From a virus, in the IMG/VR virus record IMGVR_UViG_3300037473_000190, positions 1-46,401 of that record: a DNA stretch of 46,401 bases, one strand, 5' to 3'. The translations under genes and the position numbers were made by a program. This document shows positions 1 to 46,401 of the stretch, in pieces. Numbering within the stretch: the first letter of the stretch is position 1; the number at the start of each line of letters is the position of its first letter. The notes beneath the pieces are model-generated. The model worked only from the letters and a program-made list of their open reading frames with translations, was not told the DNA's origin and ran no database searches.

Positions 1-127
1 AAAAAGAACGAACCCCGGCAGCGACCGCAGCCACTCCCAGAACGTCACGTTGTCGCGCACGTCCTTCTGCGTGACCACCTGCCGATACGCGACCGGGACG
101 CCGTCCTTGTCGTTGATGAGGGTGATC
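1..127. repeat. Terminal direct repeat, copy 1 (identical to 46275..46401); circular closure overlap
   Basis: Bases 1..127 (aaaaagaacgaaccccggcagcgacc...gttgatgagggtgatc) were compared by eye and match 46275..46401 exactly. Confidence 0.95.
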
Positions 128-270
128 TTGTCGCTCTCGATGATCTTATTCGGACGAACTCCGAGCCCGACGGCCGTGCTCACCGGGTTCGGCACGAATA
201 AAAGGATGAGCCCCCCGATCACGTACGCGAGCAGCGCGACTTCCGCGACACCTTTGTTGTTACGAAGCAT
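1..270 (-). CDS. Membrane protein, 5' part of a gene that crosses the circular junction (continues at 46274 down to 46059; about 161 aa in total)
   Basis: ATG at 270..268 lies 5 nt after a GGAGGA Shine-Dalgarno. 270 nt is exactly 90 codons, and the frame runs on into track ORF 46059..46352. Hydrophobic segments: VAEVALLAYVIGGLILLFVP and LPGFVLFLMVLGAVFPPAAIVFW. Confidence 0.7.
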   Translation of the reverse strand, partial: MLRNNKGVAEVALLAYVIGGLILLFVPNPVSTAVGLGVRPNKIIESDKITLINDKDGVPVAYRQVVTQKDVRDNVTFWEWLRSLPGFVLF

Positions 271-282
271 GACGTCCTCCGA

Positions 283-444
283 TCAGCCGAACTTGAAAAA
301 TTCTTTGAACGCCTTCGTGAGCTTCTTGAGGAACCGATCGTCCTTTCTGGACGAGGTGTAGACGACCGCGTACGATTCCGCGATGCGCAGCACGATGAAA
401 AAGAGCACGACCCACACCGCGAATTTCCCTAAGTGATCGAGCAT
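283..444 (-). CDS. Small membrane protein (53 aa), holin-like by size and position
   Basis: Not in the ORF track because it is under 60 aa. ATG at 444 is preceded by GGAGG. Translation: MLDHLGKFAVWVVLFFIVLRIAESYAVVYTSSRKDDRFLKKLTKAFKEFFKFG, one TM segment plus a basic tail. Confidence 0.55.
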   Translation of the reverse strand: MLDHLGKFAVWVVLFFIVLRIAESYAVVYTSSRKDDRFLKKLTKAFKEFFKFG

Positions 445-455
445 GAGAACCTCCG

Positions 456-764
456 TTATAGGTCTTCCTGTGAAACGTCGAACCCGCTTTTTTGGAGTAG
501 CTTAAGCAACGCCTTCTTCATCTTGTCGAGATGATCCCACATGACCTTACGTTCCCGGTCGACTTCCTTCATTCGCTCCGTCGCCGCCGTGATCGTGAAG
601 CATCCGCTTGCGAAGCTGTCGACCTTGCCCTCAAGCGCCCCGAGCCGGGTGATGATCGTCTCGAACTTCCCCACGAGTTTGCCCGCGAAAAAAATGATCG
701 GAATCAAAAAGATCGCGAGACACAAAGCCATTGAGAGAAGCTGAATCCAATTCGACGGGGTCAT
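456..764 (-). CDS. N-terminally membrane-anchored coiled-coil protein (i-spanin- or holin-like)
   Basis: Track ORF of 102 aa with GGAGGAG upstream of the ATG at 764. TM segment LSMALCLAIFLIPIIFFAG is followed by a charged helical region. Confidence 0.6.
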   Translation of the reverse strand: MTPSNWIQLLSMALCLAIFLIPIIFFAGKLVGKFETIITRLGALEGKVDSFASGCFTITAATERMKEVDRERKVMWDHLDKMKKALLKLLQKSGFDVSQEDL

Positions 765-9976: not shown

Positions 9977-12382
9977 TTAGCCGACCTTCTTCATGCCGAA
10001 CTCGAATTTATTGAGCATGTCCAGGATCTCGTTGATCTTGTTGTTCTTTTTGTATGACTCCGGGATGTCCTGCATCGCGCCCGCGAGGAGCTTCTTCGCC
10101 TCGTTCAGGTGATGAAACCCGAGGTTCTGCTTTGAACGCCAGAACGCCGGGTCGAGCTCGAGCGTCTTCTTGTAGCACTCTATGCCCTTCTCGGTGTCGC
10201 CGTCGTTAAGGTAATGCAGTGCCATGTTGAAAAGCGGCCGCGGGTCCTTCTCGCCCGAGATCGCGAACTGCCGCATGTTGATCTTCTCGTAGCGGTTGAT
10301 CTTCTCGCGCACGCGGTCCTGCGTCTTGAGATAGCCCCGATGATGCAGCGCGACCGGGGATTGAACGACGTAACCCCGATGCGCCCGGCAGCGTGCGGCG
10401 ATCGATTCCTCGAGCGATTCGTGGACGAGGCCCGAGTAAAAGATTTCGGGAATGTTCCGGTAAAGCCGGATCGTCTCCGAGATCGAGTACTCGTTTTCCT
10501 GCGGCTTGTTGGACTTCGGCATCGAGAGATAATTGATGACGGAAAAAAGGAACCCGTCGCACTCCTCGTCGATGAAGTTGAACAGCTTGTGGACGTCCTC
10601 CTGCATGAAAAGCTCGTCGCAGTCCATGTTGAGAATCCACGCGCCGCGGCATTGCATCTTCGCCCAGTTCTTCGCCTCGGAGTAATTGAGCAGCCGGCCG
10701 TTTTCGTCGACGTCGAACTTCTTCTCGAAGATCCTCACCTTGCGGTTAAAAAGCCGCCCGAAGCGGATCACCTCGTCGATCGTGTGGTCCGTCGACCCGG
10801 TGTCCACGATGACGATCTCGTCGGCGATCGGCTCGATGTTCGTGAGCATCTGCCCGATGAGCTCCTCCTCGTCCTTGCACACCACCATGACGGAGATGTC
10901 GTTCTTCTCGCGGTAATTCTTCACCGTGACGTTCTTGTCGATGAGGTGATGATAATCCTCGTTGCCTACGTCAGCCCGAACAGGGCGCGGATCCGCATTT
11001 CGATAGAACTCATATTTGCGCTTTCTCTGCGCCTCGGTGTCGTACCCCAGATGCTTGACCCGGATGTTGAGCCACGATACGTTTTCCGGGGGAATCGACG
11101 GCGCACTCCCGCAATGATGGTTATACACGTTTGAATTTTCCCGGATCCGCATGCCGGGAAGTACTCGGAAGAACCGGCAATTCTGGAACCCTCCGAAAAT
11201 TCCGTCAGCACGATATTTCTCGACACCGTTTTCTTCCTCCCAGATCGTGCGCCAGAAGTACGAATAGCCCATGATCTGCGGGTTCTTCGGACGGATGAGC
11301 TCGGGCGCCATGTTGACGAACTTGTCCTCGTACACCTCGTCGCCGTCGATCGAGATGATCCAGTCCGCGCCGCGCGCGATCGCCGCCTGCAGGAGCCAGT
11401 CCCGCTCGGCCTGCTCGTCGAACGGGTGCGCGTCTTCGTGCCACTCCTCCCAGAACTTCACCTTCGGGAACGACAGCGCGATCTCTTTCGTGCGGTCCTT
11501 CGACCGGGCGAAAAGGCAGATGATCTCGTCCGCGAACTTCGACGTCTGCTCGAGCGACTTCGCGATGTACGCCTCGCAGTTGGCGATGCGGTAGACCGCG
11601 ATGAGCTTCGGCTTCTCGGCGGCCGCCCACTTCGCGTAAAAGAGCTCCTGGTTCTTGCGGCCGTTCAAGAGGTAGTCGCTGTAAAATTTGTCCTTCATGG
11701 ACGCCTTGAAACTGCGCTGCCCGATGTGGTAAATGTACGTCCCGAAGTCAATGAAAATCCGAAGCCCTTTCGTACGCGCGCGCATGCAAAGGTCGTTGTC
11801 CTCGAATGCGTTCACGAACTGCGGGTCGAACGCGTACTCCTCGCCTTCGAGGAATTCGCGCGACACGAACATGCACCACCCGAACACGAGGCCCGCCTCC
11901 TGGTACTTCCCGGCATTGGCGCGCGTCCACTCGAGCGCCGCCTCGTCGAAATTGCGGCCGTTTCGGATGTCGCCGACCATTTGACGGCCTGCGGAATTCG
12001 ATCCGCACGGCCCGACGATCGCGATCTTCTCGTCGTGGCGCATGCAGATGTCGAGCATCTCGATCCACTTCGCCGTGACGATCGTGTCCGAATTGAGGAA
12101 CACGATGCGCTCGCCCTCCGCGAGCTCGACGCCCTGGTTGTTCGCGGGCCCGAAGTTGCGGTTGTCGGGGTTCTCGATGAGCTTGACGTTCTTGTGCCGC
12201 GCGGCAAGCTCTCTCAAATACCCGACGCTCCCGTCGGTCGATCCGTTGTCGACCACGATGAGCTCGAAGTTTTCCGTGTTACGAAACACCGAGTCCACGC
12301 ACCGGGCCGTGTCTTCGATCGTGTTGAAGCTCACCACGATCACCGAAGCTTTTACGCCTTCTCTCTGAGGCATGAGTCGCAT
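9977..12382 (-). CDS. Multidomain glycosyltransferase: three tandem GT2-like domains plus a C-terminal TPR-like region (801 aa)
   Basis: Domain 1 (aa 12-230): SVIVVSFN...VVDNGSTDGS...FLNSDT. Domain 2 (aa 258-460, divergent): IAVYRIAN...ISIDGDEV...VKHLGY. Domain 3 (aa 495-690): SVMVVCKDEE...IVDTGSTDHT...NMDCDELF...LHHRGY. TPR-like tail: ALHYLNDGDTEKGIECYKKTLELDPAFWRS. Confidence 0.8.
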   Translation of the reverse strand: MRLMPQREGVKASVIVVSFNTIEDTARCVDSVFRNTENFELIVVDNGSTDGSVGYLRELAARHKNVKLIENPDNRNFGPANNQGVELAEGERIVFLNSDTIVTAKWIEMLDICMRHDEKIAIVGPCGSNSAGRQMVGDIRNGRNFDEAALEWTRANAGKYQEAGLVFGWCMFVSREFLEGEEYAFDPQFVNAFEDNDLCMRARTKGLRIFIDFGTYIYHIGQRSFKASMKDKFYSDYLLNGRKNQELFYAKWAAAEKPKLIAVYRIANCEAYIAKSLEQTSKFADEIICLFARSKDRTKEIALSFPKVKFWEEWHEDAHPFDEQAERDWLLQAAIARGADWIISIDGDEVYEDKFVNMAPELIRPKNPQIMGYSYFWRTIWEEENGVEKYRADGIFGGFQNCRFFRVLPGMRIRENSNVYNHHCGSAPSIPPENVSWLNIRVKHLGYDTEAQRKRKYEFYRNADPRPVRADVGNEDYHHLIDKNVTVKNYREKNDISVMVVCKDEEELIGQMLTNIEPIADEIVIVDTGSTDHTIDEVIRFGRLFNRKVRIFEKKFDVDENGRLLNYSEAKNWAKMQCRGAWILNMDCDELFMQEDVHKLFNFIDEECDGFLFSVINYLSMPKSNKPQENEYSISETIRLYRNIPEIFYSGLVHESLEESIAARCRAHRGYVVQSPVALHHRGYLKTQDRVREKINRYEKINMRQFAISGEKDPRPLFNMALHYLNDGDTEKGIECYKKTLELDPAFWRSKQNLGFHHLNEAKKLLAGAMQDIPESYKKNNKINEILDMLNKFEFGMKKVG

Positions 12383-12384
12383 GA

Positions 12385-12891
12385 TTATAAATTCTCCTGT
12401 TTTTTTTCCGCTATTCCCACGCAGTCGTCCGCGTAGCTGAAAATCTCGAGCTCACGAAGTCCCGCGTCTTCGATCAAAACCCGCATGCCGTCATCCAGAA
12501 TTCGCCAACAGTCAAGCGGGCAAAGCTCCCCCTTATGAACGAAAAAACTCCACGGCGCGATGAGACAGATGATGCCGCCCGGCTTAAGCACGCGCGCGAT
12601 CTCTTTCACCGTGTTCCACGGACGCCTGCAGTGCTCGAGCGTCTGCCCCGAGATCACGACGTCGAACTCGGCGTCCTTGAACGGAAAAACGTCTTCCTTG
12701 TTCGACACCACGTCGACGCCTTCGCCGGGCGCCGCATCGAGTCCGACATGCTCCGTCACCACGCCGTTGAAAATATGCCGATACGACCCGTTGATGTCCT
12801 GGCTCCCGACGTCAAGAAGCCGCTTCCCGGCGAGCCGGTCCGCGTATTTATTCTTGAATTCGGCCATGAGCTTTAAGCTGTCCGGGTGCAT
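12385..12891 (-). CDS. Class I SAM-dependent methyltransferase (168 aa)
   Basis: ATG at 12891 (MHPDSL) overlaps the upstream TAA by 1 nt (TAATG). Motif I is RLLDVGSQD; the post-I acidic residue and the later motif VLKPGGIICL are also present. Confidence 0.75.
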   Translation of the reverse strand: MHPDSLKLMAEFKNKYADRLAGKRLLDVGSQDINGSYRHIFNGVVTEHVGLDAAPGEGVDVVSNKEDVFPFKDAEFDVVISGQTLEHCRRPWNTVKEIARVLKPGGIICLIAPWSFFVHKGELCPLDCWRILDDGMRVLIEDAGLRELEIFSYADDCVGIAEKKQENL

Positions 12892-13259
12892 TATGCGACC
12901 TTCTCCACAAGCGCCTCGATGTGATGTGTGTTGCCGTCGAAGTCGAACATCGGCTCGACCTCCGTAACGCGGCCGAGCGTGAGCCCGACGATCACCGACA
13001 CCGGATAAAGAAGATCGCCGACCTGCACGTCTTCGTTGTACCTGGCGAACATCCGGTAATCGCCGTACTTGAAATCTCCGGGCTCTTTTCTTTTCTGCAG
13101 CCCCGAGATCGTTTCCCAGTAGCACGACATGGCGGCCGCGATGACGGTCTCGCCAGTCCACCGCCGGTCCCCCATGGCCGTGGCCGTGTATCCGGTGCGC
13201 CGCGCCACCTTGACGGTGTGGTTCAGAATGAGGCGAAACTCGTCCTCAAACCTCGGCAC
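12891..13259 (-). CDS. Head-tail adaptor-like small structural protein (122 aa)
   Basis: GTG at 13259 lies 6 nt after an AGGAGG SD. Size and position between connector-type genes fit an adaptor. No enzymatic motifs were seen. The longer track ORF upstream is R/S-rich shadow. Confidence 0.45.
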   Translation of the reverse strand: MPRFEDEFRLILNHTVKVARRTGYTATAMGDRRWTGETVIAAAMSCYWETISGLQKRKEPGDFKYGDYRMFARYNEDVQVGDLLYPVSVIVGLTLGRVTEVEPMFDFDGNTHHIEALVEKVA

Positions 13260-14319
13260 CCTGCGCCTCCTGGGGTTCCATGTTGAGCAGGTCGAGTCCG
13301 TTCTCGACCGCGAGCTTCTGGTAAAGCTCGGAATACCGCCGCGACATTTCGCGCTCGGTGAAATGCGCGAGCACGTGCTCCTGCCCGCGCTGCGCGAACT
13401 CCTCGCGGATCGACGGCCTCTCGCGCAGATAGATCGCGCGCGCGGCGAGCTGCTCGACGTCGTGTTCCTTGACGAGCATCGCGTTCCCGAGGAGCAGCTC
13501 CCGCGTGACCGCGTTCTCCCACGTGAGCACCGCCACGCCGGACGCGGCCGCCTCGAGCAGCACGAGCCCGAAGCCCTCCGTCGCCGACGGATACATGAAA
13601 AGGTCCATGGCTGAATACACGGTGCGCGCGTCGTCCGTCTCTCCGGTGAAAACGACGTTCTTGAGCGGGAACGATGCCGCCATGACCTTGATCTTGCCGA
13701 GATACCCCTTCGCGTTCGAGGCCTCCCCGCCACCGATCAGGATCCACGTGTCCGGGTGCTGCTGCTGGATGATCCAACACGCCGCGAGGAACTGCTCCAC
13801 GCCCTTGTCGTACCCGAGGCGCCCCATGCGCCCGATGACGTACGCGTCGCGCGGGATGCCGAGCTTTTCCTTGTAATCGGCCGGCGTCATGTCTTCCGGC
13901 GTCTCGAGACGATCGACGTCGACGCCGTTATAGATCGTCGTGCATTTCCGGTTCATCTTCGAAACGACGCACGACACGCCGATGCGCTGCCACACGAACT
14001 TTTCGCGGACGGCCGACACGATCGGCGAATGCACGGTCTCGACGGTGCAGATCGATCCCTGCACGCTCGTCGCGATGTTGGACGGCTCGCCGCCAGTGTG
14101 CACGTGGATGATGTCCATGACGAGGTTGTGCTCGGTCTTCTTGTCTTCGACGAACACTTTCGCCCCCGCCGCCTCGAGAAGCGGCCGCATCGGGCCGTCT
14201 TTGTAGGTGTAGACGGAATGCTCGTTCGCCTTGTCGTGCTTCACGATCCCCAGAACGACGCGCTCCGCGCCGCCCATGTCGAGCTGATTCAGTTCGTGTA
14301 AGACCCTCATCGGCCTCAT
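13246..14319 (-). CDS. GT4-family (GT-B fold, Glycos_transf_1) glycosyltransferase
   Basis: C-terminal signature: YSAMDLFMYPSATEGFGLVLLEAAASGVAVL. The N-terminal part is GT-B-like (LNQLDMGGAERVV). The preferred start at 14319 lies 7 nt after GGAGG and forms an ATGA overlap with the upstream stop. Confidence 0.8.
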   Translation of the reverse strand: MRPMRVLHELNQLDMGGAERVVLGIVKHDKANEHSVYTYKDGPMRPLLEAAGAKVFVEDKKTEHNLVMDIIHVHTGGEPSNIATSVQGSICTVETVHSPIVSAVREKFVWQRIGVSCVVSKMNRKCTTIYNGVDVDRLETPEDMTPADYKEKLGIPRDAYVIGRMGRLGYDKGVEQFLAACWIIQQQHPDTWILIGGGEASNAKGYLGKIKVMAASFPLKNVVFTGETDDARTVYSAMDLFMYPSATEGFGLVLLEAAASGVAVLTWENAVTRELLLGNAMLVKEHDVEQLAARAIYLRERPSIREEFAQRGQEHVLAHFTEREMSRRYSELYQKLAVENGLDLLNMEPQEAQGAEV

Positions 14320-14891
14320 TCGCATGCCTCCTTGTTGACGTACACCGCACCGAACCCCGCATCGCCGTGAACGGGGAGACTGATCTTCGGATGCCCCGGA
14401 TTAAAGCTCGTCCAGAACTCCCGCATTCTTTCGTTCAAAGAAATGTCGTCGAAAAAAACGATCGCGCGCCGCGCGAGCTTCGGATACCACGCCTGGAACT
14501 CCATGAGCGGCTGCAGTCCGTTGTGCTCGGTGTCGATGAAAAGAAGCTCGATCCCCTTGTGCTCCGTCGGCTTCAAGCTGTCGCCGAGAAGATACGTCAC
14601 GTTCGGGCGGCGCGTCTTTTCGTACACCTGGTCCCCGATGTCGATCGTCACCACCTGCCCGGACGGATTGCCCTCCGCGAGGCACATCGAAGACGTCCCG
14701 CGCCACGTGCCGAGCTCCACCATGAGCGACGGACGGAAGCGATCGGCGATGAGGTACAGAAAGCGGTAATACGCCGAGCTCCAGTTCTCGTCGACCTTAA
14801 GCCATTCCGGCACCGCAAGCGAGGCCGATTCCTGCGCGATGCTCTCGATGAGGTGCTGCACGCTCATTTTCGGATCGTCCCCCAGAATCAT
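14316..14891 (-). CDS. Class I SAM-dependent methyltransferase, O-methyltransferase / CmcI-like (191 aa)
   Basis: ATG at 14891 forms an ATGA overlap. Motif I is MVELGTWRGTSS. VVTIDI and LLFIDTEHN are typical of sugar O-methyltransferase-like enzymes. Confidence 0.65.
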   Translation of the reverse strand: MILGDDPKMSVQHLIESIAQESASLAVPEWLKVDENWSSAYYRFLYLIADRFRPSLMVELGTWRGTSSMCLAEGNPSGQVVTIDIGDQVYEKTRRPNVTYLLGDSLKPTEHKGIELLFIDTEHNGLQPLMEFQAWYPKLARRAIVFFDDISLNERMREFWTSFNPGHPKISLPVHGDAGFGAVYVNKEACE

Positions 14892-15604
14892 CCGAGCCTG
14901 CTTACTTCTGCCGCCGACAGCTGATCTTTCACGGAAACCCCCTCGCATTTTAGTCCGATGAACGGCGTGATCGACACGACGTCCGCTCCGTAAACTTCCT
15001 TCACGCGCGCGCGGACCGCCGAGAGCTCTCGGACGTTCCGCACGAACGCGTCGTTCATGTGAAGCCGCCACGCCTCGATCGACCCCGACGCCTGCATCTG
15101 CGGGATCTCCGCGCGGTTGAAGTACTCCCCGAAATTCACCTTGCCCTCGATCGCCGCGCAGTCCACGCCGATGAGGAAAATCGTCTTGGCGCCCAGGTGT
15201 GCCGCGAGGTTCACGGCCGCGACCGAGATCGTGTTCCCGAGGCAAAGCCGGTCATCGCTGCCGAGGTCCTCGAGGTTCTTCTCGAAGTCGAAAACCTTCC
15301 CGGTGCCGAACACGAAATAATCTTCCGGCGTCTCGACGTCGTTCGGCGTGCCGCCGCCTTCATGCAGGTCGAGGGCCGACACGACGCATTTCAGCCCCTG
15401 CCCGCGCGCGCGGGTAAACGTGTCGGCGTGGGTGCAGATCATGAAATCCGCGCGAACCCACTTCCACACGTCGTTCATCGCGATGACCTTCTTTCCTTCG
15501 AGGAACCCGAGGCCGCGGAACCTGTCGACGCTCGAGCCCGAGCCCACGACGTACACGTCCTCGCCCTTCCAGATTCCCTTAAGGTCCGCGATGCTCTTTT
15601 TCAT
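14888..15604 (-). CDS. DUF115 / MptE-like domain protein (Maf-type putative glycosyltransferase)
   Basis: GEDVYVVGSGSSVDRF...KKVIAMNDV...ADFMICTHAD and GNTISVAAVNLAAHLGAKTIFLIGVDCA match the two conserved blocks of the DUF115 family as I recall them. Confidence 0.65.
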   Translation of the reverse strand: MKKSIADLKGIWKGEDVYVVGSGSSVDRFRGLGFLEGKKVIAMNDVWKWVRADFMICTHADTFTRARGQGLKCVVSALDLHEGGGTPNDVETPEDYFVFGTGKVFDFEKNLEDLGSDDRLCLGNTISVAAVNLAAHLGAKTIFLIGVDCAAIEGKVNFGEYFNRAEIPQMQASGSIEAWRLHMNDAFVRNVRELSAVRARVKEVYGADVVSITPFIGLKCEGVSVKDQLSAAEVSRLG

Positions 15605-16158
15605 CGGTCACCGTGTCCTTCGTGGACGTTCTCGTACGACCCGCCGACGAGCTGCCGGATCTTTCTGAACTCGATGACGAAAACCTCTTTCACGTGCGGC
15701 TTCACGACGCCGTGATCGTGCTCGATCGAGGAGCCGTTGAGCTGCCATGCGTGCGTGAGCTCGCCGTTCCAGTAGCTTCCGACCGGGACCGTGATGATGA
15801 CCTGCTTCGACGCGACGCGAAAAAGCTCCGCGAGCCCTTTGCCCGGGTTCGGCAGGTGCTCGAGGATCTCCGCACCGATCACCGTGTCGAACTCGCCGTC
15901 GGCGTACGGCAGCGCGTTGATGTCCGCGTTGACCGCCTCGATGCCGAACGTCTGCAGGGCCGCGTCGCGCGCTTCCTTGCGGTTGTCGACGGCCACGACC
16001 TCGAGGCCTTTTTCGATGAGCGCCTTCGCGACGAACCCCTCGTTGCACCCGACCTCGAGGACGCGCGGCCCCTCGGCCCGGTTCACGATCTCCTGCACAC
16101 GCGCGCGCACTACCGGGACGGTGCAGTGCGGGAAGTCGTACCACTTGTCGAGCGGCAT
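15601..16158 (-). CDS. Class I SAM-dependent methyltransferase (185 aa)
   Basis: Motif I is RVLEVGCNEG, followed by VVAVDN and DTVIGAEILEHLPNP (Methyltransf_11-like). Confidence 0.75.
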   Translation of the reverse strand: MPLDKWYDFPHCTVPVVRARVQEIVNRAEGPRVLEVGCNEGFVAKALIEKGLEVVAVDNRKEARDAALQTFGIEAVNADINALPYADGEFDTVIGAEILEHLPNPGKGLAELFRVASKQVIITVPVGSYWNGELTHAWQLNGSSIEHDHGVVKPHVKEVFVIEFRKIRQLVGGSYENVHEGHGDR

Positions 16159-34313: not shown

Positions 34314-34446
34314 GAAGAACCACGTCCCGGGACACCGACCCTGTTAAGAGAATTTCAGAATTGTTATCAACAAGATATCTACAGGGTACGCCCGAAACTT
34401 TTTCCACGCGAGGACTTAACGCGTGTTGGCTACGCATGGTATTGAG

Positions 34447-34780
34447 CGGGAACATTAGCGGGAACTTTTTATTACTAGAAAACAAACGGCTTATATTAAA
34501 AGTTCCCCTGAACCCGCACTTTTCGCGAAAACGTATGTCTGGCTGAACACGCATGCACGGCGCTTTATATCGGCTCGGAAACGTTTTTCGCCTAAGAGCG
34601 ATTTTCTGGGTAGTCACGGGAACATTTACACAACTCTTGAAATCGCAACGCCCCGCGCGTTCCCGCCCTCTCGCGCGGCACCGTAGCCAGGGGAACATTT
34701 TGGCGGGAACAACCGAGACTCCGTGACGCTTTACGCGAAACGACCAAAAATGTTCCTGCACGACCCGGCGAAACGTTCCC
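34447..34780. repeat. Iteron array: about 9-10 copies of (C/G)GGGAAC(A/G/T)TTT in both orientations (candidate replication origin)
   Basis: GGGAAC occurs on the plus strand at 34448, 34460, 34618, 34691 and 34705. Its complement GTTCCC occurs at 34502, 34659 and 34775. Degenerate copies lie at 34577 and 34752. An AT-rich patch lies at 34466..34500 and the palindrome TTTTCGCGAAAA at 34520..34531. Confidence 0.7.
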
Positions 34781-34790
34781 GCGCGGCCCC

Positions 34791-39214: not shown

Positions 39215-40659
39215 CGGAGAAGCCCGTCGACGATCTCGTTCATGCTGCCCTTCGTGCGAAGCTTCGCGAGGATCTCCTCGTCGATCGTTCCTTGTGCCAG
39301 AATGTGATGATAAACGCAAGTCTGCGTTTGCCCGATGCGGTGCGTGCGGTCACGACCTTGATCGTAAGTCTCGAACGAATAGTCGAGCGAGAAAAAAATC
39401 TCGTTGCAGCAATTCACGAACGTGAGTCCGTGCGCGGCGCTGCGCGGGTGCGCCACGAGGAACCGCGTGCGGCCGTCCTTGAACGCCGCGATCGCCTCAT
39501 CCCGGTCGACGCCGGGCTTGATCGCGCCGTAGATCTGCGACACCCCGCCGCCGCACGACACGAGCATCTCGGTCACCTTCTCGATCTCCCAAACGAATTG
39601 ACACCACACGATGACCTGCCGACCCGCAAGCTCCCCGGTCACGAGGTCCTCGAGCTCTGCCATTTTCGGGCACTCTCCGAGCTCGACGATCGATTCGTCC
39701 TCGGCCATGGCAAACCCCGACGTGATCTCTCGCAGCTTCATGACCTTGGACAGCGCGACGCGCGCCACGACGGGCTTCCCCGCGATCTCCGAAATGAGGT
39801 TCCGGCGCATCTCGTTGTACGCGCGCTTCTGCTGCGGCCCGAGCTGAACGAGACGAACCTCGTCCACGACCGGCGGCAGATCGAGGCACTCCTCTTTGAT
39901 CGCCCGGTGAACGAACGGAGCCATGCGCGCGACGAGCTCCGCGCGGCGCTGCGCCGTGATCTTGTACTCCGCGCCCTGCTTGAAAAGCTGCGAGATCGCC
40001 TGCCGGGTCATGACCATGCCCTGCGTCGAGATCTCCTGCCCCCGCCGCTCGAGATGAAAATAGGTGTTCCGAAACGCGTTGAAGGACTTGCCGAAGACCT
40101 CGGTGTCCACGAACCCGATCTGCGCCCAGTACTCGGTCTCGCAGTTCGGGGCGGGCGTGCCGCTCATAACGATGCGGTATTCGAATGCCTTGCAGATTTG
40201 AAGGAGGGATTTTGTCGTCGCGGCGCGGTAGTTTTTGATGCGCGAGCTTTCATCGAGCACCGCGCACCACTCGCCGCCCGCGCGCGACATGAGGGCCAGA
40301 AGCTTCTGCACCTTTTCGGCGCGTTGAAAAAATTCATAGTTCACGACCATGATCGCCGGGACCGCGTCGCCGCGTTCGGGAAGCCCGTCGCGGTGAATGT
40401 TCCGAAACTGCGTCTCGCCGATCTCGAGATACTTCCGCGCCTCGTCGTGCCATGCCGCCTCGAGCAGCGACAGTGGCGCGATCACGAGTAACCGCACCCT
40501 ATTCGGCGCGCGCTTGGCGCTCAGCCGCGACCAGATCTCGAGCGCCGTCCGGGTCTTGCCGAGGCCGGGATCGTGGAAGATCGCCCCACGCCCGCCGCGC
40601 TTGACCGCGAACTCCACGGCCTCGCGCTGATGCCCGAACAGAGTATCGACGAGCGTCAT
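39211..40659 (-). CDS. SNF2-family helicase / ATPase (482 aa)
   Basis: ATG at 40659 (MTLVDTLFGHQ) is in an ATGA overlap. Motifs: DPGLGKT, VLDESSRIKN, SGTPAPN, and HPRSAAHGLTF...DRTHRIGQ. Confidence 0.85.
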   Translation of the reverse strand: MTLVDTLFGHQREAVEFAVKRGGRGAIFHDPGLGKTRTALEIWSRLSAKRAPNRVRLLVIAPLSLLEAAWHDEARKYLEIGETQFRNIHRDGLPERGDAVPAIMVVNYEFFQRAEKVQKLLALMSRAGGEWCAVLDESSRIKNYRAATTKSLLQICKAFEYRIVMSGTPAPNCETEYWAQIGFVDTEVFGKSFNAFRNTYFHLERRGQEISTQGMVMTRQAISQLFKQGAEYKITAQRRAELVARMAPFVHRAIKEECLDLPPVVDEVRLVQLGPQQKRAYNEMRRNLISEIAGKPVVARVALSKVMKLREITSGFAMAEDESIVELGECPKMAELEDLVTGELAGRQVIVWCQFVWEIEKVTEMLVSCGGGVSQIYGAIKPGVDRDEAIAAFKDGRTRFLVAHPRSAAHGLTFVNCCNEIFFSLDYSFETYDQGRDRTHRIGQTQTCVYHHILAQGTIDEEILAKLRTKGSMNEIVDGLLR

Positions 40660-41246
40660 TTTAAATCGGTCTCCTCGAAGAACCAATGATCGCCGATGTG
40701 CGCCACGCAGATGATCTTCTCTCGATCCCACGACACCGGAACGCCGAACGCGTAGATGTTCTCGAACAGCGTCGCCCCGCGCGTGAAGTTCGTGAACGTC
40801 GAAAGGAAATACGCCGCCCACGCCTTGATCCACGTCGCGAGCTTTTCGTGCTTTACGTGCGGCGCTTTGAAGCCATACATGCCGCCGACCGAGTCGCGGT
40901 TCTGGATGACTTCCCCGACGGCGATCATGCCGACAAACGGCTGATTCGCTGCCTCGCCGACGATCGCCTGCACCGCATCGAACACGCTCACGTCCGCGCG
41001 CGCGGCCGGTGCGGCCATGACGAGGGCCGCGACCATGAAGAACGTCGCGATCGGAACCTTGAAATGCCGCGCGAGCGCGCGAAGCGACCGGGGCCCGGGA
41101 CGGAACCCGACCTCCCACTTCGACACCGCCGACCCGTCCTTCCCGATCGCGCGCCCGAGCTCCTCCTGCGTGAGGCCCGCCTCGGTGCGCAGATCGAATA
41201 ACTTGTCGCTCTTGAACGTTCGTTTTTGCTTTGCCATGCCCTGCAT
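40656..41246 (-). CDS. Fusion protein: XRE-type HTH + transmembrane segment + SleB-like (Hydrolase_2) cell-wall hydrolase domain (196 aa)
   Basis: HTH: LRTEAGLTQEELGRAIGKDGSAVSKWEVG. TM: IATFFMVAALVMAAPAA. Hydrolase: IVGEAANQPFVGMIAVGEVIQNRDS...TRGATLFEN...VSWDREKIICVAHIGDHWFF. ATG at 41246 lies 6 nt after GGGGA. Confidence 0.65.
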   Translation of the reverse strand: MQGMAKQKRTFKSDKLFDLRTEAGLTQEELGRAIGKDGSAVSKWEVGFRPGPRSLRALARHFKVPIATFFMVAALVMAAPAARADVSVFDAVQAIVGEAANQPFVGMIAVGEVIQNRDSVGGMYGFKAPHVKHEKLATWIKAWAAYFLSTFTNFTRGATLFENIYAFGVPVSWDREKIICVAHIGDHWFFEETDLK

Positions 41247-41276
41247 CTTAATCCCCTTTTTGTTTACGCGCAAGAA

Positions 41277-41306
41277 AAAACTTCAAGTTTTTTCAACTTT
41301 TTTCAA
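41277..41306 (-). promoter_or_regulatory. Three helically phased 10-bp repeats TTGAAAAAAG / TTGAAAAAAC / TTGAAGTTTT
   Basis: ttcaa occurs on the plus strand at 41282, 41292 and 41302, exactly 10 bp apart. The array lies in the AT-rich gap upstream of the HTH-TM-SleB gene. Confidence 0.6.
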
Positions 41307-41313
41307 GGTCGAT

Positions 41314-41454
41314 TTAGACGCTTATTCCGTTCCCCGGCTCACCCCACCCGGGCTCTCTTTCGTAGAACGTGACCTCGTCCTCGAGCAGCCGTCGCGGCCG
41401 CTTCGGCGCGGGCTCGGGTTTCTTGGGCGCCGCCTCGCCGTCCTTCTTCTTCAC
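41314..41454 (-). CDS. Possible small basic protein (46 aa, GTG start)
   Basis: Not in the track. GTG at 41454 forms a GTGA overlap with the RHH gene stop. Translation: VKKKDGEAAPKKPEPAPKRPRRLLEDEVTFYEREPGWGEPGNGISV. Confidence 0.35.
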   Translation of the reverse strand: MKKKDGEAAPKKPEPAPKRPRRLLEDEVTFYEREPGWGEPGNGISV

Positions 41455-41636
41455 GACGCGTTGCCGTCAGAAAGCTTCTCGGACATGGCCATGTCGGCGA
41501 GCTTTTTGTCGTTGGCCACGAGGCGCACCGCGCGGCGGTAGACCTCGCTGCGCGAAAGCCCGTGCGTCTTCTTCATCGATGCCGCCCACTCGATCATCTT
41601 CTCGTCCGAGAAAACCGTTACCGGGACTCTGATCAT
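41451..41636 (-). CDS. Ribbon-helix-helix (CopG/Arc-like) DNA-binding protein (61 aa)
   Basis: MIRVPVTVFSDEKMIEWAASMKKTHGLSRSEVYRRAVRLV shows a beta-strand then two helices. The ATG is in an ATGA overlap. Confidence 0.6.
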   Translation of the reverse strand: MIRVPVTVFSDEKMIEWAASMKKTHGLSRSEVYRRAVRLVANDKKLADMAMSEKLSDGNAS

Positions 41637-41821
41637 GATGCCTCTCCTATTTTCCAGTCGCTCATGCGCTTGTCGCTGCCGAGCCGCTTGATCGTGATGT
41701 CCTGCCCCACGACGAGCTCGACGTCGACGGTGAACAGCACGACCGCCTCGTTGTCTTCCGTGATCACCACCGCGCGATGATTCGCGTCGATGTACTGCAC
41801 CTTCGCTTTTTTGAATACCAT
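41633..41821 (-). CDS. Hypothetical protein (62 aa)
   Basis: Track ORF with an ATG start. Confidence 0.5.
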   Translation of the reverse strand: MVFKKAKVQYIDANHRAVVITEDNEAVVLFTVDVELVVGQDITIKRLGSDKRMSDWKIGEAS

Positions 41822-43135: not shown

Positions 43136-43399
43136 TTATATTAGACCGACGAACTCGGTGCCCTCGGCACCTTGTATATTGCGGCCGACTACGACGTCGC
43201 CGACCACCCACGGATACCGCGCGTTGCGCGGCTTCCCTTTGATCCTGCCTTCCTCGTCCACGCAGATCGTAAGGCCGAGCCCGCCGTACGTGAACTCGAT
43301 GTAACCCCCGACGAGTTCCTGCAGCTTTTCAAGCGGCAGCGGCGCGTCGGACTCGATGACGTTCACCTTGCCCTCTGCGGTGACGTGGGAATAAATCAC
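43136..43399 (-). CDS. DUF3846-like protein (87 aa)
   Basis: GTG at 43399. LEKLQELVGGYIEFTYGGLGLTICVDEEGRIKGKPRN fits the DUF3846 pattern. Confidence 0.55.
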   Translation of the reverse strand: MIYSHVTAEGKVNVIESDAPLPLEKLQELVGGYIEFTYGGLGLTICVDEEGRIKGKPRNARYPWVVGDVVVGRNIQGAEGTEFVGLI

Positions 43400-43400
43400 G

Positions 43401-43586
43401 TTACCACCCGATCGCCTTCGAGATCTCCGGCGTGATGCCGCCGAGGTCATCGAACAGCCGCTTCTTGTAATACTCCCCCGCCTCGCCTTGGAAGATCGGA
43501 TCGTCCATGGACGCGAACCGCCACCGCCGCGCGAGCTCGATGTGCGACATGGCGTCGATCTCTGCCTTCCACGCCTCGACGCTCAT
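43401..43586 (-). CDS. Small conserved phage protein (61 aa)
   Basis: MSVEAWKAEIDAMSHIELARRWRFASMDDPIF...GGITPEISKAIGW. The choice between 43586 and 43619 as the start is uncertain. Confidence 0.5.
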   Translation of the reverse strand: MSVEAWKAEIDAMSHIELARRWRFASMDDPIFQGEAGEYYKKRLFDDLGGITPEISKAIGW

Positions 43587-43635: not shown

Positions 43636-44055
43636 TCATTGCACTACCTCCACGAGTTCGAGTGCCTGCACCGCTTCCTCGCGCGAGCCGCACGGCCCGG
43701 CGTATTTCGCGACGCTGTCGCGCTTGACGAGCTTTTCCATGTGACGCGTGCCGAAGTACTTGTTCACGTGCGTCTGTCCGTCGATGTCGACGTACGCATA
43801 AAACCGATCGCCGGGTTTCACGGCCTTGACCTTGACCGCCTTCGGCGCGGCGTCTTCCTCCGCGCCTTCCGATTCCTTGCGCGAGGCGAGGAACTTCTGC
43901 AGCCGCTCCGAGCTTGCCCGGCTGCGGGCCTCGCGCTCGACGTCGAGCTCGGACTTGTACCCGAGCGCCGTCAGAACGCGTTCGCAGCCCTGCGCCTCGA
44001 GCTCGACCGTGTACGCCTTGCCGCCCTCGCTGATGCAGTCCTTCGTGTACCTCAT
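43636..44055 (-). CDS. Hypothetical protein (139 aa)
   Basis: ATG at 44055 (MRYTKD) forms an ATGA overlap with the upstream stop. Confidence 0.55.
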   Translation of the reverse strand: MRYTKDCISEGGKAYTVELEAQGCERVLTALGYKSELDVEREARSRASSERLQKFLASRKESEGAEEDAAPKAVKVKAVKPGDRFYAYVDIDGQTHVNKYFGTRHMEKLVKRDSVAKYAGPCGSREEAVQALELVEVVQ

Positions 44056-44342
44056 GCGTCCACCGCCGCGTCGAGCGCGCCGTTGTAGGCCTCGAGCACC
44101 CGGTCTTCGATGACGCGCCGCGTCTCGTCGTCGCACGGCGAAAGAATGTCGAACCACCGGCCGTCCTTCGACGCTTTTCTGGGGAGCGAAACGAACACGC
44201 CCGACTTGCCCTTCAAAACCGAAAACCCTTTGATGATGATCGCGCCTTCGGTCTGGCCGACGTTCAGAGTGAACTTCACGTCCACGAACGCTTTGATCGA
44301 TCCGTCGCCGTGAATAAGGCGCACGTCAGTGACATTTATCAT
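44052..44342 (-). CDS. SpoVG-like nucleic-acid-binding protein (96 aa)
   Basis: INVTDVRLIHGDGSIKAFVDVKF...IKGFSVLKGKSGVFVSLPRKASKDGRWFDILSP...R..IEDRVLEAY aligns by eye with the SpoVG fold consensus. Confidence 0.7.
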   Translation of the reverse strand: MINVTDVRLIHGDGSIKAFVDVKFTLNVGQTEGAIIIKGFSVLKGKSGVFVSLPRKASKDGRWFDILSPCDDETRRVIEDRVLEAYNGALDAAVDA

Positions 44343-44432: not shown

Positions 44433-45605
44433 TTAGAACGCGATCTCGAGCAGCTTACCCGCCGCGCGGTCGAGCTTGACGCGCTCGTCCGCGTGCGCCG
44501 TCTTCTGCGACAGCTCCGTGAGGCCGTTCACGAGCCCCCACGGCGTGTTCGGCGCGCCGTAGCGGCCGCGCATCTCGGCGATGTCGTACGCCTCGTCGAG
44601 CGCCTTGCGGGTGACGTACGTCCTCGACCGCGTCGCGAACGACAGCGCCGCCGTGATCGCTTCGTCCTTCGTGGCCCCGAGCGTGAACCGCCGGGCCTTC
44701 ACGATCTTGGCCTCGAGGTCCGACGCGCTCTCATCCGCGTACTTCTTGAGCTCGACGTTGAGCCCCTGGAACGCCTTCGCGTTGGCCTCGCCGACGTGCC
44801 GCACGCGCAGCTCGGTCACGCCCTTGGCTCCCCACACGATGTGATTCCCGCAGATCGCGTCATACAGGAACGTCATGAGACCGAAGCTCGATGCCCCGAC
44901 CTCCGAATTCCAGATGAAGAACCCGCGCCCGAGTCCGTGCCCGGTGCCGTCATCGATCGCCGCGTCCTCATTGACGAGGAACGCGAACATGTCGTGATCC
45001 GACGCGTACAACCCCGCCGGGGCGACTTGATCGCCGACGTTGATCGACAGGCCCGACTTCTTGAGACGCAGCACGTCCTCGGCCGTCGCGACGCGCGTGC
45101 GCTCGTTGTCGATGCCCGCCGGGCGCGCCGGGGGAACTCTCCAACCCTGCGGCAGGTTGTCCATGAGACGCCCGACGATGTCGGCGTTCCAGATGCGCGA
45201 ATACGTCTCCGACGTTGCCGCGCGAAGAACGAACGAGCCGTTTTTGTGGAACAGAAGCTTCGCGGAATCGTCCGCGCCGCTCTCTGCCGCACGATGCGCG
45301 AGCCCGTGGTTCAGGTTCTGCGCCGCGAGCGTCGCCGGAAGCTCCCTTAAATAAGACGCCGGTGCGCCGACGCGCGCCGAGATCTGTCCGAACGCCCAGT
45401 TCGTGAGGCGCGCCGGGATCGCCTTCTTGCCGACCACCATGACCTCGCCCTTGTCCGCTTCGACGCGCAGCTCACCGAACGGCACCGTCGCCTCGCACGC
45501 CGACGCGCGGTATTCGTTGCACTTCGCGCGCATCTCCGCGAGATCCCAGAACCGCTCGTCTGCCGGACGCTCTGCCCATTGTTTCGACGCTTTGAAAAGC
45601 TCCAT
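44433..45605 (-). CDS. DUF932-family protein (390 aa), first gene of the early operon
   Basis: Size, position and blocks (…LTNWAFGQISARVGAPASYLRELP…, …FFIWNSEVGASSF…) resemble DUF932 phage/plasmid proteins. AGGAGGA SD present. Confidence 0.55.
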   Translation of the reverse strand: MELFKASKQWAERPADERFWDLAEMRAKCNEYRASACEATVPFGELRVEADKGEVMVVGKKAIPARLTNWAFGQISARVGAPASYLRELPATLAAQNLNHGLAHRAAESGADDSAKLLFHKNGSFVLRAATSETYSRIWNADIVGRLMDNLPQGWRVPPARPAGIDNERTRVATAEDVLRLKKSGLSINVGDQVAPAGLYASDHDMFAFLVNEDAAIDDGTGHGLGRGFFIWNSEVGASSFGLMTFLYDAICGNHIVWGAKGVTELRVRHVGEANAKAFQGLNVELKKYADESASDLEAKIVKARRFTLGATKDEAITAALSFATRSRTYVTRKALDEAYDIAEMRGRYGAPNTPWGLVNGLTELSQKTAHADERVKLDRAAGKLLEIAF

Positions 45606-45862: not shown

Positions 45863-46042
45863 TTATCCGATGCGAACGTGCGGCGCGCCGCCGCCGATCA
45901 GCCCGAACAAATACACGATCGCCACGATGAGCACGATCACGACCGCGATCGTCTTGAACGGCGCGGGAATCGGCAGCAGCGTGACGCAGTAATAAATGAG
46001 ACCGAACACGATCACGATCAAAAGCAGCGATAGGAGATCCAT
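45863..46042 (-). CDS. Small two-TM membrane protein (59 aa), holin-like
   Basis: ATG at 46042 follows GGAGGG. Translation: MDLLSLLLIVIVFGLIYYCVTLLPIPAPFKTIAVVIVLIVAIVYLFGLIGGGAPHVRIG. Confidence 0.6.
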   Translation of the reverse strand: MDLLSLLLIVIVFGLIYYCVTLLPIPAPFKTIAVVIVLIVAIVYLFGLIGGGAPHVRIG

Positions 46043-46058
46043 GACGAATCCCTCCGGT

Positions 46059-46401
46059 TTATTTCCCCTGGATTTTATCGACGAGCTTCTTCGTCGGCAT
46101 GTCTTGAACCACGCCCATTTGCGTGTAGATCGTTTCCTTGACGGCCGGGTCCTGCACCTTGTCGAGCGCCTTGTCAACGCCGACCACGATCTGCTTCGTG
46201 CTTTTCATGAGCGCGCCGTACACGCGCCAGAACACGATCGCCGCGGGCGGGAACACCGCGCCCAGGACCATGAGAAAAAGAACGAACCCCGGCAGCGACC
46301 GCAGCCACTCCCAGAACGTCACGTTGTCGCGCACGTCCTTCTGCGTGACCACCTGCCGATACGCGACCGGGACGCCGTCCTTGTCGTTGATGAGGGTGAT
46401 C
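46059..46401 (-). CDS. 3' part of the junction-spanning membrane protein gene (same gene as 1..270; 5' end cut by the window edge)
   Basis: Track ORF 46059..46352 is in frame with the codons of 1..270 through the 127-bp repeat. Confidence 0.7.
   Translation of the reverse strand, partial: ITLINDKDGVPVAYRQVVTQKDVRDNVTFWEWLRSLPGFVLFLMVLGAVFPPAAIVFWRVYGALMKSTKQIVVGVDKALDKVQDPAVKETIYTQMGVVQDMPTKKLVDKIQGK
46275..46401. repeat. Terminal direct repeat, copy 2 (identical to 1..127)
   Basis: Exact 127/127 match, read by eye. Confidence 0.95.

Follow-up and report, generated by a model that had tools for sequence, protein, structure and literature searches.

Introduction

Can a single phage gene supply both a DNA-binding protein of the Cro/CI type and an enzyme that cuts the cell wall and, if so, what becomes of the two parts once they have been made? 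The question is raised by an open reading frame (ORF) on the minus strand of a virus genome, IMG/VR record IMGVR_UViG_3300037473_000190, of which positions 1 to 46,401 were analysed (this whole stretch of 46,401 nucleotides is called the window). An earlier note, made from the letters of the DNA, had described the ORF as a helix-turn-helix (HTH) domain, a membrane anchor and a SleB-like cell wall hydrolase domain joined in one polypeptide. The account that we favour, with modest confidence, is that the ORF encodes the precursor of a Sec-exported SleB-type lytic transglycosylase, probably an endolysin, which carries an N-terminal Cro/CI-type HTH domain and would be split by signal peptidase. 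The coordinates of all features are collected in Table 1.

A continuous three-part reading frame at the head of the replication genes

The ORF starts with an ATG at 41246 and ends with a TGA at 40656..40658, and its product has 196 amino acids (aa). A Shine–Dalgarno (SD)-like AGGGG lies at 41253..41257, 7 nt 5′ of the ATG. An alternative TTG start at 41273 would give 205 aa; the gene callers of other assemblies took the form of 196 aa. That the ORF is really two genes, joined by a sequencing or assembly frameshift, is extremely improbable: the contig produced by a second assembler is identical to the window over 15,121 nt, the same 196-aa product was called in a JGI assembly, and in ten divergent homologues from other samples the ORF is likewise unbroken and the junction motif F-K-V-P-I-x-x-F-F is kept. 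Thus, the earlier view that the fusion is genuine has held, as have its three-part architecture, each part of which was confirmed, and the statement that neither a stop codon nor an internal SD sequence precedes the hydrophobic segment. The sole in-frame start codon near the junction is that of M71, which has no SD sequence, would leave a signal peptide of 14 aa without an n-region, and is not kept in the homologues; the production of a separate lysin from an internal translation start is thereby ruled out.

The window carries an exact direct repeat of 127 nt at its ends (1..127 and 46275..46401) and is therefore a circular assembly of 46,274 nt, in which nearly every gene lies on the minus strand. 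The fusion gene stands at the head of the replication gene block, as had been noted earlier: a 67-nt AT-rich gap lies on its 5′ side, and its stop codon overlaps the start codon of an SNF2-family helicase gene. This ATGA overlap suggests translational coupling of the two genes. The position is kept in the two homologues for which the context could be read (loci L002 and L014), where the fusion gene is directly upstream of the SNF2 helicase gene, followed by genes for DUF7307 and Pam3_Gp34 proteins, as in the window.

The N-terminal domain is a Cro/CI-type HTH

The Pfam family HTH_3 (PF01381) matches residues 18–67 with an E-value of 4.5e-11 (43 bits, against a cut-off of 23), which bears out the earlier assignment of residues of about 14–66 to a Cro/C1-type HTH, and HTH_31 is likewise above its Pfam threshold. 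The PHROGs matches of this domain are to transcriptional regulators and repressors only, and its NCBIfam matches are to repressors and antitoxins only, all of them sub-threshold. The model made with AlphaFold2 (AF2) has helices at residues 13–23, 27–34, 38–45 and 55–62, with the next helix at 66–78. Foldseek, for which the query was the full-length protein, matched the HTH to the Phi106 repressor, SinR, the 434 and P22 c2 repressors and C-proteins with probabilities of 0.97–1.00 and weak E-values (0.1–1). The closest matches of the HTH are DNA-binding repressors, antitoxins and C-proteins. A RodZ-like identity is ruled out by the absence of HTH_25 and DUF4115 from the Pfam matches and of any RodZ model from the NCBIfam matches. 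A lead from the literature, the trans-membrane transcription factor HigX (PMC13384398), proved to be a LytTR protein and is unrelated.

Among the 11 fusions (the protein in the window and its ten homologues), the enzyme domain is the best conserved (mean pairwise identity 65%), followed by the HTH (48%) and the hydrophobic part (38%). All 11 are above the Pfam threshold for HTH_3, and S42, W44 and E45 are invariant. Judged by this conservation, the HTH in the fusions is still under selection.

The C-terminal domain belongs to the SleB-type hydrolases

The C-terminal domain has numerous relatives: a profile built from five of them retrieved 155 proteins, many of which carry Hydrolase_2 (PF07486) in their precomputed annotation, and an exhaustive library yielded about 980 clusters at E ≤ 0.001. 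Hydrolase_2 was matched by 71 of 100 family members and, in a set of 83, by 73 at E ≤ 0.01 (best 2.6e-8). The AF2 model, calculated from 100 sequences, has a mean pLDDT (the model's own per-residue confidence score) of 89.7, with values of 95–98 in the SleB-like domain. The only Foldseek matches in the PDB with E-values below 1e-3 are chains of SleB catalytic domains (4fet_B and 4f55), the next being 4fet_A at 1.7e-3; all three have a probability of 1.00 and TM-scores (target-normalised) of 0.53–0.60. The 20 best matches of the model in BFVD are phage SleB-type hydrolases, including those of pf16, Goslar and GAP31 and the “endolysin” of Erwinia phage Y2. Per-domain profile searches and structure prediction, the check that the earlier note had suggested, thus gave HTH_3 above its cut-off and a SleB fold.

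The pair G97-E98 is invariant in the 100 sequences, and E98 aligns with the glutamate of the SleB motif “YGES”, presumably the residue that is essential in the SleB structures as well. That glutamate has been reported to be essential for SleB (PMC12331253). By its modelled fold and its putative catalytic glutamate, the C-terminal domain is a divergent member of the SleB type, and lytic transglycosylase activity is predicted for residues 85–196.

The hydrophobic segment resembles an internal, cleavable signal peptide

Between the two domains lies a hydrophobic stretch (residues 66–82 or 66–84), preceded by R60, H61 and K63 and followed by D85. The charge of the flanks is +4 before the segment and −3 after it, which fits an N-in/C-out orientation. 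The features of a signal peptidase I substrate are present: a positively charged n-region, an h-region (I66–A82) and A82-R83-A84 at the c-region. The N-terminal location expected of a Sec signal peptide is not, as 65 folded residues precede the segment.

An A-x-A-like site follows the hydrophobic stretch in 170 of 199 family members, with a sharp mode at 12 residues before the G of the GEA motif and a typical distance of 11–13 residues. All 11 HTH fusions have A/S-x-A at 12–13 residues before GEA; among them, A84 is invariant and A82 nearly so. The motif is kept while the hydrophobic part as a whole is the least conserved part of the fusions. Most relatives are small and unfused (e.g. P0004 and P0020) and consist of a plain N-terminal signal peptide followed by the enzyme domain, and the A-x-A of the fusions is in register with the cleavage motif of these proteins. 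The h- and c-regions of the fusions together span 17–25 aa, often with a proline, a helix breaker, five or six residues before the site. Short h-regions with such c-regions are cleaved even when they are internal, as is known from work on signal peptides and signal anchors. The conserved, in-register A-x-A, the short h- and c-regions and the helix breaker make residues 66–84 look less like a permanent anchor than like a signal peptide that is internal and cleavable. Thus, of the hydrophobic anchor that had been proposed for residues of about 66–83, the segment and its orientation stand, whereas its role as an anchor was not supported.

The earlier suggestion of a signal-anchor-release (SAR) endolysin with an extra cytoplasmic module can be set aside. 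SAR endolysins, such as those of the P1 Lyz and phage 21 R21 type, have an uncleaved, weakly hydrophobic transmembrane (TM) segment at the extreme N-terminus; the segment of the fusion starts at residue 66 and carries a conserved A-x-A. SAR release is excluded by topology: the segment cannot slip out toward the periplasm because a folded domain of 65 aa is attached to it on the cytoplasmic side.

Fusion homologues and interchangeable N-terminal modules

The ten homologues that keep all three parts (P0002, P0009, P0011, P0014, P0018, P0019, P0023, P0027, P0028 and P0030) come from different samples and share 45–52% identity with the protein in the window. Megablast of 25 kb of the window gave no relatives among cultured phages, and tblastn of the fusion protein against cultured phages gave only generic HTH matches in Bacillus phages. 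Scans of IMG/VR, JGI metagenomes and GTDB genomes yielded no further HTH-fused loci, only relatives of the C-terminal domain and three matches in metagenome-assembled genomes (MAGs). These three, from a Verrucomicrobiota, a Planctomycetia and an Eubacteriales MAG (two of them are loci L008 and L009), were the only matches of the enzyme family in 185,579 species genomes. Two of the three (Verrucomicrobiota and Planctomycetia) hint at hosts in the Planctomycetes–Verrucomicrobia group.

The HTH is not the only sequence found before the signal segment. Of the 207 family members in which the motif could be recognised, the hydrophobic core is preceded by no more than 15 residues in 88 and by 40 or more in 83; an extension of at least 35 aa is present in 94 (about 45%), and these extensions are of dozens of unrelated types. 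A Met near the core, and hence a possible miscalled start, occurs in 23 of 91 extended members. The XRE-type HTH group is the largest class of extension (11 clusters). Other extensions contain the Pfam domains HNH_3 and HTH_39 (a winged helix) and, as weak matches, HTH_17 and NUMOD3. In another phage, P0013 has a homologue of the product of the 62-aa early gene of the window fused, instead of the HTH, to the same signal segment and SleB-like domain; in L014, a homologue of this 62-aa gene lies directly upstream of the HTH fusion. P0022 and P0017 have a third kind of module. The C-terminal domain of P0017 is the nearest to that of the protein in the window (64% identity), and in a related phage the gene for P0022 sits in the same slot, separated by a few genes from an SNF2 helicase gene downstream. 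The enzyme gene of L003 stands unfused: a gene for a 67-aa membrane protein (two hydrophobic stretches by eye, of which a hydropathy scan flags one) overlaps its start, and a separate 63-aa HTH_3 gene comes before that. The stand-alone HTH of L003 is only generically similar to the fused HTH (24% identity, hhalign probability 81%), which gives no support to direct descent of one from the other. In a rough neighbour-joining tree of the 110-aa domains, members with and without the HTH are interspersed; a domain of 110 aa is too short for the tree to settle between a single gain of the HTH and several.

By these comparisons, the N-terminal modules are interchangeable, and the HTH is the commonest of several. 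The simplest account of the sequences would be that early genes lying upstream were fused, time and again, to the signal peptide of the lysin gene; such fusions would survive because cleavage at the signal peptidase site yields the mature enzyme whatever stands before it.

Two further observations concern such modules. P0029 (L015, 10001..10657) has an excisionase-like HTH_17 module (a weak match) and a hydrophobic segment that ends in a lipobox-like M-T-G-C, and may be a lipoprotein version of the same design. The 61-aa product of 41451..41636 in the window, upstream of the fusion gene, is ribbon-helix-helix-like by eye; family searches gave it no support.

The SleB-type protein as the probable endolysin of the phage

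No second lysin was found in the precomputed Pfam matches for every called gene of the phage genome, nor in PHROGs scans of 20 genes without a Pfam match (all the Pfam-less genes of more than 100 aa except one, a 166-aa gene beside the terminase gene). The earlier claim that the ORF holds the only muralytic domain of the genome is therefore sound in the sense that it is the only recognisable one. Hydrolase_2 is a dominant catalytic domain of the lysins from phages of Gram-negative hosts (PMC8223927). In rV5-like phages, SleB-like proteins with signal peptides have been implicated in lysis, and a gene for a two-TM holin candidate overlaps the SleB-like gene (PMC7344957). Since no other lysin was found and the SleB-like proteins of rV5-like phages are linked to lysis, the SleB-type protein is most likely the endolysin of the phage. 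A cluster of small membrane-protein genes after the tail genes looks like the membrane part of a lysis cassette, and two-TM genes are also found close upstream of the lysin gene in L015 and L014. The lysin gene is in the early or replication region in every context seen: the window, L002, L003, L014, L015 and L029.

The region upstream of the fusion gene

The gap upstream of the fusion gene has a GC content of about 0.50, against 0.61 for the genome, and contains TTGAA three times with a period of 10 nt (41282–41286, 41292–41296 and 41302–41306). It also contains a perfect palindrome of 19 bp, AAAAAACTT-G-AAGTTTTTT, which occurs once in the window at up to 3 mismatches, where 0.04 copies are expected by chance. 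The palindrome is a candidate operator for a dimeric HTH protein; autoregulation at this site is only a hypothesis. In L002 and L014, near-consensus sigma-70 promoters (L002, 263..309, TTGACA-16-TACACT; L014, 9955..10000, TTGACA-16-TATAAT) end exactly 10 nt short of the fusion gene's start codon. As these promoters are directly before it, the fusion gene heads its transcription unit, and the mRNA would be almost leaderless. A comparable near-leaderless mRNA is that of lambda cI from PRM. The fusion gene of the window differs in this respect: it has an SD sequence, and a simple scan found neither a canonical sigma-70 promoter nor a terminator around it.

Proposed mechanism and alternative explanations

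According to the account that we favour, the HTH would fold in the cytoplasm, residues 66–84 would serve as an internal signal peptide, and host signal peptidase I would cut after A84, releasing an enzyme of 112 aa into the periplasm. The cut would leave, on the inner face of the membrane, an HTH fragment of 84 aa that ends in a hydrophobic tail; the fragment would stay there unless trimmed further. This fragment may still be an early (auto)regulator, perhaps acting at the palindrome before its own gene. The small membrane proteins whose genes follow the tail genes would set off lysis at a late stage. The fusion itself would have arisen when an upstream early gene was joined to the signal peptide of the lysin gene.

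Several results weigh against this account. The fusion protein alone matches Hydrolase_2 below the Pfam threshold (17.6 bits against 27, with residues 102–118 aligned), and sequence searches of the PDB with the single protein and two profiles did not give a significant match to SleB (E-values of 0.45–0.85), which is why the comparison of folds was needed; the family matches, the SleB fold and the G97-E98 pair nevertheless confirm the assignment of this part to Hydrolase_2/SleB in the earlier note. Cleavage is read solely from the conservation of the motif. The palindrome was not seen upstream of the fusion genes in L002 and L014, and no second copy was found in the genome. The membrane-protein cluster matches no named holin or spanin family, and its distance from the fusion gene, which lies downstream, is 4.6 kb in the window (1.3–2.4 kb in the more compact L014). 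Genomic relatives are confined to the three MAGs from Verrucomicrobiota, Planctomycetia and Eubacteriales. A lysin exported from an early operon should endanger the infected cell, and no mechanism that restrains it was identified.

A more far-reaching version of the same idea is that the gene encodes two proteins in one: a precursor from which host signal peptidase makes a tail-anchored Cro-like protein and a periplasmic lysin, as in a polyprotein strategy. Trimming by a site-2 protease or signal peptide peptidase might then free the HTH fragment, the first gene of the replication operon would supply regulator and lysin at a constant ratio of 1:1, and the dose of lysin would be self-limiting if the HTH repressed its own promoter at the palindrome. 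The SleB-like family as a whole would be a platform for small cytoplasmic modules, often DNA-binding, placed before an internal signal peptide. We put this forward tentatively, as a possibility somewhat on the doubtful side.

Should the protein not be cleaved, it would be bitopic, with a cytoplasmic HTH tethered to a periplasmic domain that binds or cuts the wall, and might act as a one-component regulator or as a membrane anchor for phage DNA. The position of its gene, which opens the replication block and seems translationally coupled to that of the SNF2 helicase, would fit the role of a DNA anchor; moreover, the HTH is conserved and passes into the hydrophobic helix without a linker, and some of the h- and c-regions (21–25 aa) are long enough to span a membrane. 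An anchor, however, would not need an A-x-A that is invariant in the fusions and in register with that of unfused relatives with signal peptides. Sister phages have an unrelated N-terminal module, or none, in the same slot, which implies that the periplasmic domain is independent of the HTH, and the catalytic helix starts 3–4 residues after the motif, so that a tethered enzyme would be held against the membrane. We regard such a protein as unlikely, and the earlier proposal of a one-component membrane regulator that links lysis to transcription, although possible, found no specific support. Just as unlikely, in our estimate, is that the fusion is an evolutionary by-product, in which a former Cro-like gene rides on the lysin precursor without any coupled function, as an ordinary regulator or as an idle passenger. 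The variety of the extensions speaks for this (dozens of unrelated types in the 94 of 207 members, among them HNH_3, HTH_39, HTH_17 and the homologue of the 62-aa gene), as does the interspersion of members with and without the HTH in the rough tree of the C-terminal domains. Some of those extensions may be miscalled starts, however, and the HTH fusion forms the largest class and remains intact, with its hallmark residues, down to 45% identity, which speaks for at least the maintenance of the fusion. Finally, the SleB-like domain could be an early periplasmic factor (for wall remodelling, superinfection exclusion or non-lytic binding to the wall), the true endolysin being encoded elsewhere and unrecognised. 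Its gene is in the early or replication region in all six contexts, and many proteins of the window have no family match. Against this, the catalytic glutamate and the core of the domain are invariant, genes for membrane proteins of holin size stand beside the lysin gene in L003 and L015, no alternative lysin is detectable in the window, and SleB-type proteins with signal peptides are linked to lysis in rV5-like phages (PMC7344957). This makes an early periplasmic factor distinctly improbable.

Other features of the genome

A non-coding stretch of 477 nt at 34314..34790, in which the GC content dips to 0.435, contains GGGAAC[AT]TT five times, a motif found nowhere else in the window, together with looser copies in both orientations. 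This iteron-like cluster is a candidate replication origin and adjoins a gene for an 875-aa DUF3854 primase-like protein. Between the major capsid gene and the tail genes, 9977..16158 holds a block of glycosyltransferase (GT) and methyltransferase genes (an 801-aa GT2, a GT4, three or four S-adenosylmethionine-dependent methyltransferases and an MptE-like gene), the position of which points to a role in modifying virion proteins. Among the products of the early region are a SpoVG homologue (44052..44342), a DUF932 protein (44433..45605) and a DUF3846 protein (43136..43450); SpoVG recurs just upstream of the fusion gene of L014. The SNF2 helicase gene of a related phage (L029, 3950..6355) holds an intein, with PF14890 between two halves of SNF2-rel_dom.

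Table 1. Positions of the fusion gene, its parts and associated features in the window
Feature	Position	Strand	Basis or remark
Three-part fusion ORF, complete (HTH, signal-like segment, SleB-like domain)	40656..41246	−	196 aa; identical in second assembly
XRE/Cro-C1-type HTH domain, residues 13–65	41052..41210	−	Pfam HTH_3, PHROGs, AF2, Foldseek
Hydrophobic segment and c-region, residues 66–84, IATFFMVAALVMAAPAARA	40995..41051	−	predicted signal peptidase I site A82-R83-A84 / D85
SleB/CwlJ-like (Hydrolase_2) domain, residues 85–196 (112 aa)	40659..40994	−	family profiles, AF2, Foldseek
Codon of E98, putative catalytic Glu of GEA	40953..40955	−	invariance and SleB alignment
AT-rich intergenic region, 67 nt, likely promoter region	41247..41313	−	SD-like AGGGG and three TTGAA
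19-bp palindrome (perfect 9+9), candidate operator	41275..41293	−	unique in window
SNF2-family helicase gene, 482 aa	39211..40659	−	ATG 40657..40659 overlaps fusion stop (ATGA)
62-aa early gene	41633..41821	−	homologue is N-terminal module of P0013 (41% identity, E 4e-11)
102-aa protein, N-terminal TM and coiled coil, candidate lysis cluster after tail genes	456..764	−	topology, no named family
53-aa single-TM protein, candidate lysis cluster	283..444	−	
161-aa two-TM protein gene across circular junction	1..270 (5′ part) + 46274..46059 (3′ part)	−	
59-aa two-TM protein (PF28077)	45863..46042	−	holin-like size and topology

Comparison with known systems

Exported SleB-type lysins are already known in phages, and the enzyme itself is ordinary. 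Its nearest counterparts are the SleB-like lysins of rV5-like phages (gp83 of Pectobacterium phage CB7 and gp087 of Cronobacter phage CR3), which have the same type of catalytic domain, an export signal and an implication in lysis (PMC7344957). They too are encoded outside a classic lysis cassette, and in some of these phages a small two-TM gene adjoins. They begin with the signal peptide, whereas in the fusion a folded HTH of 65 aa precedes it and the gene opens the replication block. SAR endolysins (P1 Lyz and R21 of phage 21; PMC8223927) have in common with the fusion Sec export by means of an N-proximal hydrophobic segment, and holin-independent export with late triggering may be a shared logic. 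The SAR domain occupies the very N-terminus and passes out of the bilayer uncleaved; the segment of the fusion is internal, follows a folded domain and has a conserved A-x-A.

Lys44 of the Oenococcus phage fOg44 is a secreted endolysin that is processed by signal peptidase before lysis and restrained until the membrane is de-energised. It is likewise an exported endolysin with a cleavable signal peptide, but it comes from a phage of a Gram-positive host, has another catalytic domain and has no N-terminal cytoplasmic module. The lysozyme of T7 (gp3.5), an amidase that remains in the cytoplasm, exerts its regulation through the binding of T7 RNA polymerase, for which it uses the same domain. Thus, it is also a wall hydrolase encoded among genes of DNA metabolism that regulates transcription, the classic coupling of lysis and expression in one polypeptide, but unlike the fusion it has neither an HTH nor an export signal. 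RodZ, which has HTH_25 and DUF4115 and binds MreB, and ToxR and CadC, which have OmpR-type winged helices and sensor domains, are built alike, with a cytoplasmic HTH at the N-terminus, one membrane segment and a periplasmic domain, but all three lack a catalytic wall hydrolase and a conserved motif for signal peptidase. For the anchoring of replicating phage DNA to the membrane, p16.7 of phi29 provides the logic.

Full-text searches of the literature found no described example of an HTH–lysin fusion through an internal signal, in line with the earlier note, which knew of none, and no phage precedent for a polyprotein split by signal peptidase was found in the searchable literature. Such a split is familiar from flaviviruses and hepaciviruses, in which host signal peptidase cuts the polyprotein at an internal signal sequence at the core–E1 junction. 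There, too, a cytoplasmic nucleic-acid-binding protein is separated from an exported protein; the system is eukaryotic and uses the translocon of the endoplasmic reticulum, so that the analogy is one of logic only. What is new here is that a lysin precursor and a Cro-type DNA-binding domain are joined, in a conserved fusion, by an internal signal sequence, that this fusion has a fixed place at the head of the replication genes, and that about 45% of the lysin family have varied N-terminal cytoplasmic modules before a conserved signal peptidase motif. If the precursor is split, these phages use host signal peptidase to derive two proteins, one cytoplasmic and one periplasmic, from a single gene, and the dose of lysin is coupled to a regulator; if it is not, they have a DNA-binding protein that is tethered to the membrane and bears a wall hydrolase on its outer side, likewise without a described counterpart among phage lysins. 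Either arrangement would bear on the timing of lysis in phages of poorly studied hosts, possibly of the Planctomycetes–Verrucomicrobia group.

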